From a virus (taxonomy: Duplodnaviria; Caudoviricetes), in IMG/VR virus record IMGVR_UViG_3300020577_008610, positions 32,001 to 96,000 of that record: 64,000 nt of DNA; one strand, written 5' to 3'. Made by a program: the position numbers and the translations under genes. The notes beneath the pieces are model-generated. The model made no database searches, was not told the origin of the DNA, and was given only the letters and a program-made list of their open reading frames with translations. Shown one piece after another: positions 43,838 through 53,581 of the stretch (position 1 is the first letter of the stretch; each line of letters opens with the position of its first letter).

Positions 43838-46800
43838 TTACGGCTTCGCAGGAGCCTCAGAAAAGCCACCGAAAGCGAGAGCGGAGGAATGGCCCTTGCC
43901 CACCCCGAACACGAATACCCCAGGCTGCTCAGGGATCATTCTCCAGGGGTCAATCACCACAGACCCAGCAGGAAACTTATAATCCCGGAATACAGCGTGG
44001 TGGGTGCCAATAAAGAAACACTTGGCAGGCCCATTAGCATACGGATTCACCGTCTTGTCCTCGGCCTTGTCCACCCAAGGATCATACATCTCAGCCTCGA
44101 TGCCCCTCTCGGCCAGGATGTTCTTCAGGAGGATCGCAGGAGAGCCAACCTCAAGGTTGGTCTGCTCCTTGAATGCCTTCCCGAGAATAACCACAGGAAG
44201 AGTTCTGTACTCCTTGACTGTGAAGTCTTCTGCGGAGTAAATGCCAACCTTTCGGTACTTCTCAACCAGATTGGCCAGGAAGTCCGTCTGCTTTTCTCTT
44301 GCCATCATGATGGCCTCATGGAAGTCAAAGGTCATCCCTAGCTTCCTGGAGAGCCAAGAGAGGGCGATGTTGTCCCGAGGGTGGCAGTTGTTTGATATAC
44401 CTGATGTAGTCAGATAGTTGTGAGTTCCTTCAACATTAAGGTTGTACACAGTACCCTTGTAGTCTTCCAGTTCTACCTTGACAACTTGGTGGTAAGATAC
44501 ACCATCAATTACCGGGATTTCTCGCTGGATAAACTGTGCAATCGCTGGTTTATGGTTTTGTTCACCAAGCAAGGTGCAAAGCTTTTGAACATATTGGTCA
44601 TTTTCAACTCTGACCTTCCATTGAGGTTTTCGATTGCACCCATCATTGCTGTTTTTCTTTTCAACAGTAATTGTTGGCACAATGCCAAACTTCCTGAGAA
44701 TGAAGTAAAGGTTAGAAGCCAAGACCTCAGAAGTGGTTGTGTAGCTCAAACCCTTGCCATTCTTCATGTTGCATCCATCCCCTGCCCACATGCTTTGTAC
44801 CAATGGAGTCAACACTTCTGGTTTGGCAAAAAGCAGCCATGGCGGGATTGTCTTCTTTGAAGAACCTCTCCCAAAGTCGTTCAAGAGCTTGCGTTTCAGG
44901 TCAGCAGAACTAATCCGAATATCCAAGCCATTTCGCTTGTTGTGCTTCTTTGCTGAAACGCGCTTGCTAGGATACAAACGCTTCAATGATTTAGTGAGAT
45001 CGGTATGCAATTCAGTTTCATTGGAATGGAAACTGAAAGCAACACGAGGCTCATTAGCGATAGAACCTTCTGCAAGATAGTAACCAGCTACCTTCAAGTA
45101 ATCCTCTGTGGCATGCTTGGGCATTGCAAAGTCTTGGTTGTGTGCCTCAAATGGGAAAAGAATGTGATGCCTGTTCGGTTCCAGTTCCCAGCCCTTGACT
45201 TCTTTTACTGTTGTCACCTTAGTTTTATCTTCCAGTTCGGCCACCAAGAACGTGTGGTCCAAGGTAAACTTCATGGCAGGCAAACCTTTTACATGCACAT
45301 TCACAAGTTGTGAGTGATAAGGTCGCCTATACGTTTCAAGCACCTTGTGAAACTGCCCATCCGAAGACAACACCATGTCACCCTTCTGGATATCTTTGGT
45401 CTGTCTCACTCCTAACTCCGTGAAAACATTACAGTTTTCAAGGGTGCATCCCCCACCGTCTCCCATGCCTGCATTCAGGTACTTCGTAGAGATGAGACGT
45501 TCCTTCCCCAGCTTCAGAGCCGAAGTCACCTCATCCACATCTGCTCCGGTGTGGTGACAGATTTCCATGAGGTTGTTGACAAAGGCAATCTTGGTGGAGA
45601 TGAAGGTGTTACCCTGCCATGAGCATTTGCCATTTCTTCGCGTCAAAAACACATGATTCTTAGGCAGGACGGCACAATAGATCATGCCCTCGTATTCTGG
45701 CACTTCCTCATACTTCAATCCAACCTTGGATGAACGCTGAAATAGGGATGTTCTGCCTGTGAGCTCGTAGATAAGGTTGCAAGGCTTGTTTGAAAGCTCA
45801 CTCTCGTAGGCCCGATATGAGGGGAAGTGGCCTGCCTTGATAATCAGCTCGCCAATGTCCGCTGCCATCTGCTCTGACGAGGTGGCGTAATAACGATCAA
45901 ACTCCCCGGTGGGTTCGCCATTGAATCTAGTTCTTGCTTGCTTACTGCCATCAGCTTGGTTGTAAACATCCAAGAACAGCCTGATCTCCGGACGACCAAG
46001 CTTCTTGAGCCATGATGGCACGTACTTATCAAATGACTTACCAAACTGGCACAGGTATTCCCCGAGTTCGGCATGGTAGAAAGTGACACCTGACTCTTGC
46101 TGGCAGATTCCATTGCTGCTTCCAAGAGCAGCTTGCAGCGCGGCGACGGTCTGAACGATGGAATTGTACTTTTCCAAATTTTTGGAACGGTTCTGAGAAA
46201 TGATAATTTGGTAGGAGTTCTCAGAAACCTTGGTTGTGCATCCTTCTGCCAAATACCAAGCCATGAACTCAGTCATAAGCTCTATCGGAACTTCTCCAAA
46301 CCCCAGGTTAACGGTTTCTGGGGACTTTAGGTCCCAGTTTGTGTGCCTGAGAAAAGCAAATGATTTCCTCTTGATAACTTCATTTGCTTTCTCCAGCTTC
46401 CACTCGTAAGAGTAGCTCTTGCCATTGGCTGGCTTAGAGCTGAGTGTACCGATAAACATGTTGTGTCCTGGAGTGACAAACACATCATCCTTTCGACTTT
46501 GGAATCGAATCATAGGCCCCTGGTGGTAACGGCCAACGATTTTGTCTGGCTTTACCCATTCGGGCACGAGGGTGTCTGGGTTCAGACTGAGTATTTCGTC
46601 CTTCTCGGCAACATTCGGAAACAGCTTCCACCCACCCGAAGTCAAAACTTCTGTGTCTTCCGAGTAGCAGTTATAAGCAACCTTCACAAGTTCAGCACTC
46701 TTGATGGAGCATCGATAGAACGGAGCATTGTGGATGGTCTTGTAGAAGGCTTCAGCGAGGTCAGCCGTCTTCTCGTCACTCATTCCAAAGAGGACAAACT

Positions 46801-47308
46801 CCGGGTGAGTAAAGTCGTACCTTGTGGTGCCCATAGCAATGAAGAAAGGGTTGTAGCAAAGCTTGAAATGCTTACCCAAGTGAGGAATCACCTTGGAATC
46901 CATGGTTCCTGGGAGCACCGTGGAAATGACCACCACGGGCTTGTCCTTGCCGTTCTTCTCAATGGCTTCATTGAGCTGCTTGCAAGCTTCAATCAGGTAA
47001 GTGTAATCAAAATCCACACGATCTTCTGGGATTCGAGTCACGCCCTCGTATCGTGGGTTGTGTGGCGTCTGAACGGCCACAAAGATCAGGTCCGCAAAGT
47101 CCACCATCTCCTGAACGGAAACCACCCGAATCTTGGTGTTCTGCAATAGCTCAGGCGTCCCTTCCTCTCGGTAGGGTATTTGCTTTGTCCTGATGTACTC
47201 AGCAACAGCAGGGTTTGGGTCATAACCCACAACCTCGTGTCCAGCCGCTTCAGAAGCCAGGGCACATGGTAGCCCCAATTTTCCGAGCCCACAGTATCCT
47301 ACACGCAT
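43838..47308 (-). CDS. ugd: UDP-glucose/GDP-mannose dehydrogenase family protein with two inteins
   Basis: GLGKLG, AVQTP, ISTVLPGT, YNPFF, ELVKVAYN|T, GGG|CHPRD, GKAFK; exteins total ~448 aa; start ATG 47308. Confidence 0.9.
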   Translation of the reverse strand: MRVGYCGLGKLGLPCALASEAAGHEVVGYDPNPAVAEYIRTKQIPYREEGTPELLQNTKIRVVSVQEMVDFADLIFVAVQTPHNPRYEGVTRIPEDRVDFDYTYLIEACKQLNEAIEKNGKDKPVVVISTVLPGTMDSKVIPHLGKHFKLCYNPFFIAMGTTRYDFTHPEFVLFGMSDEKTADLAEAFYKTIHNAPFYRCSIKSAELVKVAYNCYSEDTEVLTSGGWKLFPNVAEKDEILSLNPDTLVPEWVKPDKIVGRYHQGPMIRFQSRKDDVFVTPGHNMFIGTLSSKPANGKSYSYEWKLEKANEVIKRKSFAFLRHTNWDLKSPETVNLGFGEVPIELMTEFMAWYLAEGCTTKVSENSYQIIISQNRSKNLEKYNSIVQTVAALQAALGSSNGICQQESGVTFYHAELGEYLCQFGKSFDKYVPSWLKKLGRPEIRLFLDVYNQADGSKQARTRFNGEPTGEFDRYYATSSEQMAADIGELIIKAGHFPSYRAYESELSNKPCNLIYELTGRTSLFQRSSKVGLKYEEVPEYEGMIYCAVLPKNHVFLTRRNGKCSWQGNTFISTKIAFVNNLMEICHHTGADVDEVTSALKLGKERLISTKYLNAGMGDGGGCTLENCNVFTELGVRQTKDIQKGDMVLSSDGQFHKVLETYRRPYHSQLVNVHVKGLPAMKFTLDHTFLVAELEDKTKVTTVKEVKGWELEPNRHHILFPFEAHNQDFAMPKHATEDYLKVAGYYLAEGSIANEPRVAFSFHSNETELHTDLTKSLKRLYPSKRVSAKKHNKRNGLDIRISSADLKRKLLNDFGRGSSKKTIPPWLLFAKPEVLTPLVQSMWAGDGCNMKNGKGLSYTTTSEVLASNLYFILRKFGIVPTITVEKKNSNDGCNRKPQWKVRVENDQYVQKLCTLLGEQNHKPAIAQFIQREIPVIDGVSYHQVVKVELEDYKGTVYNLNVEGTHNYLTTSGISNNCHPRDNIALSWLSRKLGMTFDFHEAIMMAREKQTDFLANLVEKYRKVGIYSAEDFTVKEYRTLPVVILGKAFKEQTNLEVGSPAILLKNILAERGIEAEMYDPWVDKAEDKTVNPYANGPAKCFFIGTHHAVFRDYKFPAGSVVIDPWRMIPEQPGVFVFGVGKGHSSALAFGGFSEAPAKP
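44387..45448 (-). mobile_element. Intein 2 (354 aa, LAGLIDADG-type)
   Basis: CTLENCNVFT..., FTLDH, GYYLAEG and MWAGDG, VYNLNVEGTHNY...SNN followed by Cys. Confidence 0.9.
45608..46669 (-). mobile_element. Intein 1 (354 aa, LAGLIDADG-type)
   Basis: CYSEDTEVLT..., block B VTPGH, AWYLAEG and YNQADG, ends WQGN followed by Thr. Confidence 0.9.
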
Positions 47309-47309
47309 T

Positions 47310-48092
47310 TTAGCCTTCTTTCCACTTCCACTTGAAACCACCCGCACTAGGACGGCCCCCATTGCAACACCTAGAAATTGACTGATACGCAATTCCCACG
47401 GCAGCTTGTGCTTCTTTCAAGCTGTCAAATTCTGCAACCAGAATACCTGTTACTCGATCCAATTGTACAACAGCTTTTTCATGTTGTTGGATGACAGCGG
47501 CCATCTTGTAACGAGTCTCAACAGACCACTTGTGACCATAAGCAGGATGATTTGAACCTTTTTTCCCAAAATTGGGATGCTTTTCACCAGAGTTCAACTC
47601 ACTCAGTTTCTTCTTGGTAGCTTCAGATAGCACTTTCCCCTTATGGGCTTCGCTGATTTTCTGCCGTACATTCTCCGACAGGTGCTTCCCAAAGTTGACA
47701 TGCTGGTCCCCTTTGCCAAACCATGTCCTGCTCATTTTGGCCATAGCTTCAGGTGAGTGCTTTTGTCCTCGAAAAGTTTGCTCAACACTGCACATGATGT
47801 TGTAACAGTACTCTTTTCCAGCATGTTCATCCAAGAGTTTCTGTTCAGCAGCATCTAGTTCAATGGCAGGCAGGAGTGTCACAATGCTCATTTCAAAGGC
47901 ATCTGAACCGTGTTTGTTGAAAGCATGCTGAAGACGTGGATTGTCATGAGTGCCTTTGGTTAGGTGTTCACAGTGATCTCGAAAGCGCCTACGAAGGTTG
48001 TCAGACTGGCCATAGTAGCACTTGCCATCAAGAACATTCCGTATGCAGTATAGACCACACAACCGTTTCCCTTTTGGAGCTTCAAACTTCAT
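47310..48092 (-). mobile_element. Free-standing GIY-YIG homing endonuclease gene
   Basis: GLYCIRN...YYGQS, NUMOD3 repeats, NUMOD1. Confidence 0.87.
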
Positions 48093-48161
48093 ATAGCCAA
48101 GTATGAGCCAAGCTTACCCAATTACACATATCCACTTCATGAGTATGAACACAGGGGAGGT

Positions 48162-48770
48162 TTAGAGGATCAAAAGGCAACTCACTCCTGGGGTGTCGTA
48201 CACGGTAAAAAGATTGAGCCGAAGAAACGTTTTGTATTCGAATTCCTTGAAGAACTCGATCCACTGTTCCTTGGTTTTGCAGTTGATGTGAGTGGGGTCT
48301 TGACGAGATACTTCCAGAGCAAAGGTCTTGCCACCATCCGTTGAGGACGGAATTCGGACCAACAGAACCCTGGGATTCATCTTGGTTAGTACCTTGGCAA
48401 TCTCTTGGTCCGTCATGTGCTCGAAAACATCCAGAGCAATCAAGAGGTCAGGCCGGCTGAAAACTATATCATCAATCGACTTGTGAACAAGAAGGCCATT
48501 CTTTTGGGCTATCTCTCTGGCCCAGTCAGAGATTTCCACGCCGATTGTATTCTTCAGACCAACCTCTCGGAGACCTTCAATTAGGAAACCAACAGCGCAC
48601 CCGAAGTCAATGATCAAGCTATCACGATCAACCAGGCTGATAGTTCGAAAAAGGCCAGCCAGCTCATAGGCTATCTTCTTGTAGCGGTCGGCTCTCTCCA
48701 GGTAGTCGGCATAGTTGGAAGATTGGTAATACTCTGCTGTATAGATGTTTGGGTCAACTGGTTCCGTCAT
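48162..48770 (-). CDS. Class I SAM-dependent methyltransferase
   Basis: IIDFGCAVGF, GVEIS, DVFEH, DPTH. Confidence 0.88.
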   Translation of the reverse strand: MTEPVDPNIYTAEYYQSSNYADYLERADRYKKIAYELAGLFRTISLVDRDSLIIDFGCAVGFLIEGLREVGLKNTIGVEISDWAREIAQKNGLLVHKSIDDIVFSRPDLLIALDVFEHMTDQEIAKVLTKMNPRVLLVRIPSSTDGGKTFALEVSRQDPTHINCKTKEQWIEFFKEFEYKTFLRLNLFTVYDTPGVSCLLIL

Positions 48771-49126
48771 GGCTTGCCCTCTAGCACACTAACTTGACCA
48801 AAAAACTCCGATTTGGCCATCTTGTCCCCATATCGGCTCATGATCCCTTTTCGGGAACTGAACTCCTTTGAGACAGTCTTCAGGCCAGCCTTTCGAAGCC
48901 GTTGCTCCAGGGCTACAGACTCCACACTGGCATAGATCGAACCGGAGTGATGGTAGTGCCGATACCCCACTGAGCAGGTTCCTGGCTGGTTGCAGGATGA
49001 TTGATAATAGGCTGACGTGAGCAACAAGTGGTGCTGGTTGTACGACGAGCCAGAGTGAACGGTCAGAGCACCAGACAGGTTCGAATGGTTCTGGCCGTAT
49101 GAAAGGAAGTAAACTGAGCATGTCAT
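48767..49126 (-). CDS. Small protein, LRKAGLK motif + gp23-like C-terminal fragment
   Basis: ATGA coupling to the MTase; C-terminus FSSRKGIMSRYGDKMAKSEFFGQVSV. Confidence 0.6.
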   Translation of the reverse strand: MTCSVYFLSYGQNHSNLSGALTVHSGSSYNQHHLLLTSAYYQSSCNQPGTCSVGYRHYHHSGSIYASVESVALEQRLRKAGLKTVSKEFSSRKGIMSRYGDKMAKSEFFGQVSVLEGKP

Positions 49127-49319
49127 GACGCTTTATTGACTCCAAGTCTCTCAGGAATTCAACGTCAATGTCTTCTGAGATGCTCTGTGCCAATTCTTCA
49201 GTTAGCCTACTCTCCGGAGACGTGACCTTCAATCCGGCCTTACGTAGTCGTTGGTAGAGATGCTTTGACGTTTTCCAGGCTTCTTGAGCCTGTTTCCAAT
49301 GCGTTGGTGTCCAAGTCAT
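48789..49319 (-). CDS. Small protein, LRKAGLK motif + gp23-like helix fragment (3' part may be read-through)
   Basis: ATGA coupling at 49319; PESRLTEELAQSISEDIDVEFLRDL; distal part overlaps the next gene. Confidence 0.55.
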   Translation of the reverse strand: MTWTPTHWKQAQEAWKTSKHLYQRLRKAGLKVTSPESRLTEELAQSISEDIDVEFLRDLESIKRHDMLSLLPFIRPEPFEPVWCSDRSLWLVVQPAPLVAHVSLLSIILQPARNLLSGVSALPSLRFDLCQCGVCSPGATASKGWPEDCLKGVQFPKRDHEPIWGQDGQIGVFWSS

Positions 49320-49966
49320 GGCAACAATCGCCAACCCTTTGTTTGAGAGATTTTGCCTCGAATCAAAGCTCCCAACCCTTGAGGCAAAAGTCCGTGCGTC
49401 TTGGAAAAAGCATTAAGGTTGGTGATTGGTCCGAAAACTTCTCCGGTAGGGGATAAAAGTTTCACATCAAATGTCTTGGCTTGAGCTTTGCTGATGTTCA
49501 ACTTCCACTCGTCCGTGAACGGAGTACGCTCCTTGCCTTTCCTGGTCTCTCCAATCTTTCGTTTGTGGTCTTCGGTGAATTTCTTACCCTTCTTCACCTC
49601 AGACCACATTCGAAGTTGTTCCGGAGTAAGCTTGGCTCCCTTGCGGTTAGGTGGCTTGCTGGCTTCAGCCTTGATATTGTAACACGTCTTGCAGCCATCC
49701 CAGAACAAGTCAACCCACTCCTGTTCAATCCGATCAAGATCGGGTGCGGCACATGGTTGCATCATGAACATCACAAATGCTTCCGAACCGTACTTATTGA
49801 AGGCTCGCTGCAAGTGAATGTTGTCGTGTTTCCCTCTCTGGAGAAGCGACAAATGCTCATTGAATCGACGCTTCAACCCATTTGCTTGACCGATGTAGAA
49901 ATGGCCGTTCGACATGTTCTCAATCACGTAAACACCAATCAAGGCTTCATATTCAAGGAGTTTCAT
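49316..49966 (-). mobile_element. Free-standing GIY-YIG homing endonuclease gene
   Basis: GVYVIEN...FYIGQA, CYN, NUMOD3. Confidence 0.87.
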
Positions 49967-51036
49967 GCGAAATTCTTGTCAGGCATTTCCGTGGTAACAT
50001 AATGCAAAATCTCATTGGAATTTTTGTAATAACAATGCCAACACTGGCCTTGGATGTCAATGTCATAAGGATTGCCTCCCGCCTTGAAATTGGCATTCAT
50101 AGAATGCCAGGCTTCTTTGATCTTGTCCGAGTCGCATAGCTTCCAAGTGTCGTGATAGTTCCGGTGCTTTAGAACATGGGAGGTGCACATGTACACACCG
50201 TTCCACACCCAGTAGGGTCTCACCATTCCAACCCAACAGCCGCCTTGGTAGGCATGGAAGGTCTCTCCAATCTCCTTGATGAAGAACTTGGAGTTGGTGT
50301 CAACAGCCTTCACGATGTCACCCCAGTCCTTCTTGATGGTGATGGAGTTCTCGGTGAGGCAGTCAGAGGCGATTCGAACGAACTTGATCTCCGGGTTCAA
50401 TTCCACCAGTTTTGCGATCTTCTGGATGGACTCCACAGTGGTGCCTTCGTAGATGATGTAACTGAATCCCATCTTGGAGACGGGAAATCCCGTGAAGTCG
50501 TAATCCTCAGGGTTCTTACCTTCGTCCAGCTTGATGAGAGAAATTCGAATCCAAGAGAGCTTTGCAGCATTCTCTGGCTTGATGTGCCTGGAAAGCTTCT
50601 CGGAGTTGGTGATAACCCCAATCTCGTAGCCCAAAGAGTGTGCCAACTCAATGATGTGGTTGGCATTTTTGTCCCCATCTTTATAGAGCAGAGGGTTGCC
50701 ACCTCCAGTGATCTCCAAAGACTTGGCTCCCAGTTCTCGGAACTCTCGAAGACCCTTCTCGATGAGAGCAAAAGGGATCTTCTTGTCCACCGACCTCCAG
50801 GATACCGAGCAGAATGGGCAGTTGGAATCGCAAGCTTCTGTGGGAGCAAGCTGGATGGTGATTGGCTTGAAGGTTTTGTCAGCCTGGATGGAATGCAACA
50901 CGTCAGCATGTTGAAGGAGTTTTCCTCCCCAGGTAGAATACGCTTGCGTCTGCTGCTCGTAACTCAGGTTCTCCTTCACAGGAGCCCCAACAGGCTGCTG
51001 CCCTGGCTGAATCACGTTTAACTTTGTTTTACCCAT
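49963..51036 (-). CDS. Radical SAM enzyme with SPASM/twitch-like C-terminus
   Basis: CDSNCPFC, ITGGGNP, ITN; C-terminal CWVG..YMC..CWHC. Confidence 0.88.
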   Translation of the reverse strand: MGKTKLNVIQPGQQPVGAPVKENLSYEQQTQAYSTWGGKLLQHADVLHSIQADKTFKPITIQLAPTEACDSNCPFCSVSWRSVDKKIPFALIEKGLREFRELGAKSLEITGGGNPLLYKDGDKNANHIIELAHSLGYEIGVITNSEKLSRHIKPENAAKLSWIRISLIKLDEGKNPEDYDFTGFPVSKMGFSYIIYEGTTVESIQKIAKLVELNPEIKFVRIASDCLTENSITIKKDWGDIVKAVDTNSKFFIKEIGETFHAYQGGCWVGMVRPYWVWNGVYMCTSHVLKHRNYHDTWKLCDSDKIKEAWHSMNANFKAGGNPYDIDIQGQCWHCYYKNSNEILHYVTTEMPDKNFA

Positions 51037-52526: not shown

Positions 52527-53297
52527 CTATTGAGATTCGTCATTTACTCCCGTCCATCTTCTGTAAAGGTAGAGTTTTTCAGCCAAAACAGTGGTGTTTC
52601 TGAGAGCAAGTGTCACTCTTAGGTTAAAGTCAGAGTCCTCCGAGTTGGTGATCCGGAGACCCATTCCTGGAGGGTTGAACCGGAACCCAACGTTCCAGAG
52701 AGCCTTGAGGAACATCGCAGAAGTTCCAGCTGTTTCAAACTCTGCCGTGAAGAAATGGTTAATGCCCTCGGTCTGGAATCCGTACTGAACCATCTGGGAA
52801 ATGGTATCAGCTTCAATACCCTTGAGATCTCCTTCCACGTATTCATTCTTTCGTGCCTGCACCTCTTCCTCGGAGTGGCAGTGGTAGAAGCCACACAGGT
52901 TGTGAACGCTCTCTGTGGCCCTCATGGCCTGAAATTGCCTCTCGATTCGCTGAGGCAATGCAATGTCATCAGCATCCTGACAGGTAATGACGAGGCCATT
53001 GCATTGCTCAATTGCGGCATTCAAGCAAAACCACTTCCCCTTGTTGGAAGGAAGGTTGATGTAGCGAACCCTAGGGTCCTTGCGACACATTCTTTGGGCT
53101 ACCTCATCTGTCTCATCCGTTGAGCCATCATTCACGATGACGATCTCCAGGTTTCGGTAGGTCTGTCCGATAATGCTCTCCACGCTCTCTTGGAGAAACT
53201 TCCCATGATTAAAACAAGGGATGACTACAGTAATCGTAGGGAGTTCAGTAATCGATTCGTCCTGGCTGGGCTGCTCTGTTGCTGCTTCTGTTGACAT
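52527..53297 (-). CDS. Glycosyltransferase, GT2
   Basis: VVIPCFN, VNDGSTD, QDADD, SED. Confidence 0.92.
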   Translation of the reverse strand: MSTEAATEQPSQDESITELPTITVVIPCFNHGKFLQESVESIIGQTYRNLEIVIVNDGSTDETDEVAQRMCRKDPRVRYINLPSNKGKWFCLNAAIEQCNGLVITCQDADDIALPQRIERQFQAMRATESVHNLCGFYHCHSEEEVQARKNEYVEGDLKGIEADTISQMVQYGFQTEGINHFFTAEFETAGTSAMFLKALWNVGFRFNPPGMGLRITNSEDSDFNLRVTLALRNTTVLAEKLYLYRRWTGVNDESQ

Positions 53298-53581
53298 GTT
53301 TTGAGTCCTGCTTTTCTCAGTTGTTTGCTCAAAGAGAAAGATAGTCTCCCATGAACGGGATGAATATATCTTTCTGAACCTGAAGTGGGTTCTACCACAT
53401 TTTATGCTCTTCTAGGCTTGCAGCTAGTTTTCAATCCAGTGGACTTCGAAATAGCTTTGAGGCCAGCTCTCCAAAGCTGCCTGGCAAAGTTCTACTTTGC
53501 CATGGCTTTCTCTGGAAGGTACTTTGGCGACTCACTGCCTGGTGGATGAGTGGTAATGAACCATTTGAAACTTTTACCCAT
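53225..53581 (-). other. Two tandem in-frame mini-ORFs with LW/LR(R/K)AGLK motifs (first interrupted by TAG)
   Basis: MGKSFKW...AMAK*NFARQLWRAGLKAIS...RRA* then VVEP...LSKQLRKAGLKTCQ...*; below the ORF-track cutoff. Confidence 0.5.

Follow-up and report, generated by a model that had tools for sequence, protein, structure and literature searches.

Comparative analysis establishes that ORF A and ORF B, two overlapping minus-strand reading frames in a 64,000-nucleotide stretch of phage DNA (hereafter the window), are genuine small protein-coding genes, conserved in a lineage of T4-like phages from wastewater and sludge. Comparison of their sequences further establishes that the 3' end of a gp23-type capsid gene gave rise to the last ~30 residues of B. 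The capsid-like pieces of A and B each adjoin the same module of ~12–19 residues, named here after its LRKAGLK core. The window comprises bases 32001–96000 of a 189-kb IMG/VR virus record (completeness 48%, CheckV estimate), which also encodes the phage's own gp23-type major capsid protein (MCP) of 637 aa, at a distance of ~75 kb from the A/B locus. The account developed below, in which real genes with capsid-derived pieces share a module, were shaped by deletions and act as adaptors or travel as passengers, is one that we hold with moderate confidence as a whole.

Every gene around A and B lies on the minus strand. In gene order, a radical SAM enzyme (49963–51036) and a GIY-YIG homing endonuclease (49316–49966) precede ORF A (48789–49319) and ORF B (48767–49126), and a class I methyltransferase (48162–48770), a second GIY-YIG gene and a UDP-glucose dehydrogenase gene that holds two inteins follow them. 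Glycosyltransferase genes flank the locus on either side. The ATG of A overlaps the TGA of the GIY-YIG gene (ATGA, 49319–49316), and the TGA of B overlaps the ATG of the methyltransferase (ATGA, 48770–48767). The original prediction had both frames coupled to their neighbours through ATGA overlaps; this holds for the two outer junctions, but A does not end at the start of B. From its ATG at 49319, A stays open to 48789 (176 aa), and the TGA at 49125–49123 is out of frame with it. The conserved part of A is approximately its first 60–82 codons (49319 to ~49074), and the remainder is a read-through specific to the window. In eight near-identical relatives (L003–L010) A stops at 82 aa, and among all relatives the stop falls at 82, 83 or 134 aa, or is absent, so that the stop codon is not conserved. 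ORF B, with 119 aa, consists of a conserved N-terminal part rich in Cys, His, Tyr and Ser, followed by the module and the capsid-derived tail.

The same gene order is present in five further lineages, all from wastewater or sludge (L003–L010, L094–L098, L011, L093 and the 129-kb record G001), and orthologs of the two mini-genes were found in these lineages. Whichever lineages are compared, pN/pS is lowest in the annotated frame, and stops interrupt the other two frames. Values are 0.32–0.37 for A, 0.14–0.24 for the core of B and 0.28–0.35 for its tail. The first 50 codons of B give a pN/pS of 0.31, against 0.64–1.43 in the other frames; the value for the read-through frame of A is 0.64–0.83, which indicates that the long read-through is not under selection. 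Selection is detected as far as G001, where the N-terminal part of B has a pN/pS of 0.31 and A, with 28/49 identical residues, one of 0.46; as references in the same record, pN/pS is 0.30 for the methyltransferase (67% identical) and 0.08 for the radical SAM gene. The purifying selection expected for functional mini-genes is thus seen in both frames (pN/pS 0.14–0.46).

The tail of B (residues 87–116; 48779–48868) is homologous to the C-terminus of gp23, and aligns gap-free with residues 604–633 of the phage's own MCP with 14/30 identical and 25/30 similar positions (pairwise E 1e-8). A tblastn search of the whole 189-kb record with the own MCP finds this tail with an E of 7e-5. When a hidden Markov model (HMM) of 72 T4-like MCPs was run over 5565 six-frame fragments, B came third with 18.8 bits (E 2.3e-4), after the MCP and a neighbouring paralog. 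Comparison of a profile of B orthologs with the MCP profile using hhalign gave a probability of 93.5% and an E of 2.4e-7. This alignment pairs GYRHYHH..SGSIYAS of B with GYIYAPY..TPVIYAQ of the MCP, and places residues 69–87 as an insertion. The 19-residue insert (48866–48922), which holds LRKAGLK (core 48878–48898), is without counterpart in genuine MCPs. A Pfam search with the window's B itself gave no hit; B covers only positions 547–574 of the 579 positions of the MCP HMM, and its AlphaFold2 (AF2) model has a pLDDT of 41. Among the 72 MCPs the phage's own is the best match for the tail, and the parent was most likely the capsid gene of this same lineage. The possibility that A and B are capsid subunits with a complete HK97-like fold was rejected, as they match only HMM positions 368–391 and 547–574 of 579, respectively.

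The N-terminal part of B (residues 1–68; 48923–49126) is conserved as far as the distant G001, with 54/82 identical residues over residues 1–85. Cys3, Cys45 and Cys51 are invariant, together with several His and Tyr, and the segment may be a small metal-binding or disulfide-bonded domain. It matched no family, and comparison with the MCP gave nothing significant (shuffle p 0.19–0.83; hhalign probability 0.3%). A match of its low-complexity sequence to a repetitive protein of 1215 aa (P0003) was treated as spurious.

The capsid relationship of A is borderline. Its residues 36–59 (49143–49214), located shortly after the LRKAGLK core (residues 25–31; 49227–49247), resemble the second half of the spine helix of gp23, with 12/24 residues identical to the own MCP at 417–440 (pairwise E 0.005). 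The similarity is not significant genome-wide (E 3.4 in the tblastn search of the whole record with the MCP), and A is missing from the matches of the 72-MCP HMM over the 5565 six-frame fragments. The window's A is, therefore, not significantly capsid-like alone, and the support comes from its orthologs. On the MCP HMM the window's A reaches 0.5 bits (positions 368–391 of 579) and the L011 ortholog 10–12 bits; the top Pfam hit of the latter is Gp23 (13.3 bits, E 0.054). Profiles of A orthologs align to the MCP profile with hhalign probabilities of 62–66% (E 6–8e-5), and the own MCP is again the best of the 72 for this helix. The AF2 model of A shows two helices (pLDDT 68), with the helix over residues 35–69 at a pLDDT of ~60. 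Overall, the second half of the capsid spine helix is the probable origin of A's helix. The peptides quoted in the original prediction are both present on the minus strand directly after LRKAGLK(VTS/TVS), at residues 35–59 of A and 89–114 of B. Their identification as gp23 fragments is upheld for B and stays borderline for A.

A different origin of A, as a helix-loop-helix of the IF2_N or SAP type whose likeness to the spine would be chance resemblance between acidic amphipathic helices, is possible, and we are inclined to doubt it. A hits IF2_N in Pfam with 23.4 bits (E 5e-5) over residues 11–54, and the two helices of the AF2 model, as well as the 0.5-bit MCP score and the lack of a genome-wide match, would fit such an origin. 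The pattern L..RL(R/K)KAGLKV.S...L.EE.A also agrees with the second half of IF2_N (PF04760), and a helix-loop-helix as in SAP/HeH motifs is predicted for A. However, the hit lies under the gathering score of 25.3 bits, and IF2_N is found neither in the L011 ortholog, whose top hit is Gp23, nor in the other module-bearing proteins; B and the capsid fragment E described below hold only the first helix and turn. The profile alignments to the MCP and the first rank of the own MCP also argue for the capsid, as does fragment E, a neighbour in L093 that covers the capsid segment just before A's helix.

The module follows the pattern (hydrophobic)-x-(K/R)-Q-L-R-K-A-G-L-K, then Thr, Ser or Val, and a Thr or Ser always occurs within a few residues after it. 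There are four copies in the window and six in L093, the most intact relative, and their place in the protein, whether N-terminal, central or C-terminal, depends on the member. The module is absent from the best 80 genuine MCP loci in IMG/VR, where matches span 77 residues for a 96-residue query, which identifies it as an insert foreign to capsid proteins. In an hhalign comparison of the module region with the MCP, the sole pairing was with a conserved N-terminal motif at MCP residues 21–34 (ALL.KW.KTGLLEG), sharing A, L, K, G and L, and this pairing lacks significance (probability 0.3%, E 0.2). Among the six L093 copies pS is 0.90, so that synonymous sites are saturated, and pN is 0.10 (pN/pS 0.11); the four window copies give a pN/pS of 0.14. 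Saturation of synonymous sites with retention of the protein sequence implies that the module is old and has been selected as a peptide. A degenerate DNA pattern of the module retrieved one further relative from IMG/VR (G001), and six unrelated chance matches.

The two remaining copies in the window, C (53225–53398; core 53300–53320) and D (53402–53581; core 53456–53476), are also on the minus strand and lie between two glycosyltransferase genes. Copy C overlaps the start of a GT2 glycosyltransferase gene, ending on its Shine-Dalgarno sequence and start codon. Copy D has an in-frame TAG at 53492–53494 and is shortened by deletions. At this site L011 and G001 carry a different, intact version of 57–65 aa, the start of which overlaps the end of the upstream glycosyltransferase gene.

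The related lineages provide a more complete picture of the mini-genes. In L011 and L093, three genes lie between the radical SAM and methyltransferase genes, the first of which is the ortholog of A. The second (61–112 aa) is formed by the N-terminal part of B, the module and a different tail. The third (96–100 aa), in ATGA overlap with the second, is a C-terminal fragment of the MCP interrupted by the 19-residue LRKAGLK segment, and scores 63–68 bits on the 72-MCP HMM (67.8 for the L011 copy; the L093 fragments, at two sites, reach 63.0–63.6). The similarity to Gp23 called for by the original prediction is therefore borne out, since B matches MCP profiles and the longer L011 fragment (P0004) passes the Pfam Gp23 cut-off (28.6 versus 24.4 bits). 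At the second site of L093, between two glycosyltransferase genes, a gene of 69 aa encodes fragment E followed by the module. Fragment E corresponds to MCP HMM positions ~325–375 (63.6 bits), is identical to the window's own MCP at 30/40 residues, and has this MCP as its best match among the 72.

L093, which has no endonuclease at the locus, displays the fullest set, with six module-bearing mini-genes at two sites of an island of glycosyltransferase, radical SAM, methyltransferase and UDP-glucose dehydrogenase genes. Three of the six contain clear or probable capsid pieces (MCP HMM positions ~325–375, 368–391 and 497–574). The mini-genes were found only inside this sugar-modification island, at the two sites, chained to the enzyme genes by start/stop overlaps, and the fragment genes start and end exactly on ATGA overlaps. 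The capsid fragments themselves are sporadic: E is restricted to L093, the separate gene for the C-terminal fragment to L011 and L093, and G001, which lacks both, contains no recognisable capsid fragment. Module and tail taken together differ by no more than one or two residues between the proteins of the window, L011 and L093, and the RKG.M.RY hallmark is gone from the tail of L094. For the separate fragment gene pN/pS is 0.58, not significantly below 1, and the L011 copy carries a one-base frameshift (T5 versus T6). Selection on the clear capsid fragments is thus weaker than on the module.

The mini-gene locus is restricted to a single lineage. When B was used in an exhaustive HMMER search, three related clusters were all that came up; scanning IMG/VR for close relatives, with A or B as query, gave no matches, and neither did blastn against the phage collection. 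In a tblastn search of 50,697 deposited phage records, the longer fragment matched full capsid genes only, at one place per record, with no comparable mini-gene. Six-frame HMM scans of the best 80 capsid loci revealed no duplicated capsid tail, and no description of capsid-fragment mini-genes was found in the searched literature. The same DNA is present in metagenomes of wastewater, river and activated sludge from 10 studies.

Alignment with L011 and L093 shows how the window's version is composed. Up to the module B corresponds to the upstream gene, and from the module on, joined in frame, to the downstream fragment gene, with the crossover within the shared GCTGGCCTGAA. This deletion-fusion is found in all three lineages that carry the GIY-YIG gene between radical SAM and A (the window, L003–L010 and L094–L098), and not in the endonuclease-free L011, L093 and G001. 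Copy D is joined module-to-module to the end of the gene that holds the capsid fragment in L093, so that a second deletion between modules accounts for the absence from the window of a fragment that L093 has kept. The arrangement suggests that break repair by annealing between module repeats gave rise to the B fusion. The window lineage lost part of an L093-type arrangement through deletions between module copies, and the GIY-YIG gene then entered upstream of A, or together with the deletion in B; the N-terminus of A was replaced at the endonuclease insertion. Because the relatives without the endonuclease hold more capsid fragments, the fragments predate it, and the homing endonuclease is a secondary arrival.

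Across the window, L011, L093 and L107, the presence of GIY-YIG coincides with the deletion that fuses two mini-genes into B and with the replaced N-terminus of A. Within 76 bases (~49053–49128), 15 substitutions set the window apart from the otherwise identical L003–L010, and there the window agrees with L011 and L093. This patch points to a short recombination tract, that is, to mosaic recombination between lineages.

The arrangement can be compared with three known systems. The first is the duplication of the capsid gene within a phage, as in gp24 of T4 and other gp23 paralogs (PF07068), and the present genome likewise has a partial gp23 paralog beside its MCP gene. The gp24-type paralogs keep the whole HK97-like fold, whereas here pieces of 25–80 residues are attached to a foreign module ~75 kb from the capsid gene. 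The partial paralog (C1:5263-6003, outside the window) encodes ~247 aa that cover only MCP HMM positions 397–504 (62 bits), and ends in ILDMNIL, comparable to VLDMSLI in the MCP.

The second is intronless homing, in which the free-standing homing endonucleases of T4-like phages leave behind duplicated gene ends and split genes. Short recoded copies of a gene end next to a GIY-YIG gene, an endonuclease polymorphic among relatives and exchange of flanking DNA are reminiscent of such footprints. However, the fragments are not beside their parent gene, they predate the endonuclease, and the best 80 capsid loci show no duplication. An explanation of the fragments as endonuclease footprints was rejected, with the parent ~75 kb away and fragments kept by endonuclease-free relatives.

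The third is the glycosylation of phage capsids. Mycobacteriophages encode glycosyltransferases that glycosylate their capsid proteins. The present phage also combines glycosyltransferase genes with capsid-related sequence, and has Ser or Thr after the module. The difference is that in those phages the capsid protein itself is modified; here capsid-derived mini-proteins are encoded, and glycosylation is putative. To our knowledge, separate capsid-derived mini-proteins have not been described in the known cases of capsid glycosylation. Compared with gp24-type paralogs and endonuclease duplications, what sets the locus apart is the combination of short fragments, a shared foreign module, distance from the parent gene and selection.

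The identity of the neighbouring enzymes bears on the role of the mini-genes. In NCBIfam, a viperin-like family (46 bits) and MoaA (32 bits) come closest to the radical SAM enzyme, with neither score anywhere near the family cut-off; against peptide maturase families the enzyme reaches only 15–25 bits. The methyltransferase is best matched by a pseudaminic-acid-associated methylase (27 bits), again far below the family cut-off. The chemistry suggested by these matches is that of nucleotides or sugars, and not the maturation of peptides. Of the roles put forward in the original prediction (capsid-mimic decoy, assembly modulator or glycosylation adaptor), we infer that the position of the mini-genes, translationally coupled to sugar-modifying enzymes, best accommodates the last, with A and B as small adaptors or acceptors that work with these enzymes, a proposal that we make tentatively. 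In such proteins the capsid-derived pieces would mediate binding to the capsid protein or to partners of it, and the module, together with the Ser/Thr beside it, would be the handle common to all. Against such adaptors, the target of the island may not be the virion; moreover, the clear capsid fragments are sporadic, the fragment gene is weakly selected, the hallmark is lost in L094 and the stop of A is not conserved.

About as probable is that the capsid pieces are passengers, tolerated in-frame tails of proteins whose function, if any, resides in the module and the N-terminal part of B. We rate this as a possibility to be taken seriously, without expecting it to prove correct. An island rich in endonucleases and inteins would break often, and repair would have copied short pieces of the phage's highly replicated capsid gene into the break junctions, or recombination would have left them behind. 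The irregular occurrence of the clear fragments, missing altogether from G001, is consistent with passengers, and so are the relaxed selection and frameshift in the separate fragment gene, the loss of the gp23 hallmark from the L094 tail and the recurrence of deletions between modules at both sites. Endonuclease and intein content varies among the relatives, and the conserved N-terminal part of B is devoid of capsid similarity. Other observations argue against this reading: the tail of B is itself constrained (pN/pS 0.28–0.35), module and tail are nearly identical proteins in the window, L011 and L093, the fragment genes are bounded exactly by ATGA overlaps, and no capsid-tail duplication occurs at the best 80 MCP loci.

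A further reading, which we consider rather unlikely, is that parts of the own capsid protein, namely the spine helix and the C-terminal strands, were taken over by the phage, attached to the common LRKAGLK handle, and serve as a family of mini-proteins that dock on the capsid protein or compete with it. They would either carry or direct the glycan of the island onto the virion, or blunt a host capsid sensor. Host defences that sense capsid proteins, of the CapRel and Lit types, are known, and the small size and capsid-derived nature of A and B would suit decoys that block such immune sensors. We regard decoys as improbable, because A and B are situated within, and coupled to, a sugar-modification operon and not where early or anti-defence genes lie, because the identity of the pieces to the own capsid protein is only ~50%, and because one related lineage is missing them. 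A role as RiPP-like precursors, with the module as leader of a peptide modified by the radical SAM enzyme and the methyltransferase, is very improbable: the small genes do lie between these two enzyme genes and share a conserved segment beside variable ones, as such precursors might, but the radical SAM enzyme is viperin/MoaA-like with maturase matches of 15–25 bits only, no peptide-recognition domain was seen, and the module changes position among members, unlike a leader.

Full-length paralogs of capsid genes, gp24 among them, are familiar, unlike short fragments under selection that share a module and lie in an enzyme operon. Should the capsid-derived parts prove functional, they would point to a novel class of small proteins by which phages make use of capsid-like surfaces, be it for virion decoration, assembly control or immune evasion, and would offer a handle on the targets of the large sugar-modification islands of environmental T4-like phages. 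Were the recruitment of capsid pieces true, it would represent an undescribed way of using fragments of structural genes. If the pieces are passengers, the locus provides a natural example of an endonuclease-rich region that creates, fuses and deletes small genes.

Scans of the window with Rfam (gathering thresholds) and for tRNAs gave no matches, and no T4 late-promoter consensus is present in it. A structured RNA in the A/B overlap region is not supported (fold z-score 0.12, zero compensatory pairs). In two wastewater metatranscriptome runs (X19 and X20), contigs of a 94%-identical variant span 48160–49970 at a word depth of ~300, compared with 14–17 in DNA runs; this is suggestive of transcription of the stretch, which contigs as such cannot show.

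Mobile elements in the neighbouring genes vary among the relatives. The UDP-glucose dehydrogenase (43838–47392 in the window) has 452 aa and no intein in L093, 804–820 aa in L011 and L003, and 1174–1184 aa in L005 and the window, lengths that indicate a polymorphic intein content. The upstream glycosyltransferase of L011 extends to 707 aa with Hint and LAGLIDADG hits.
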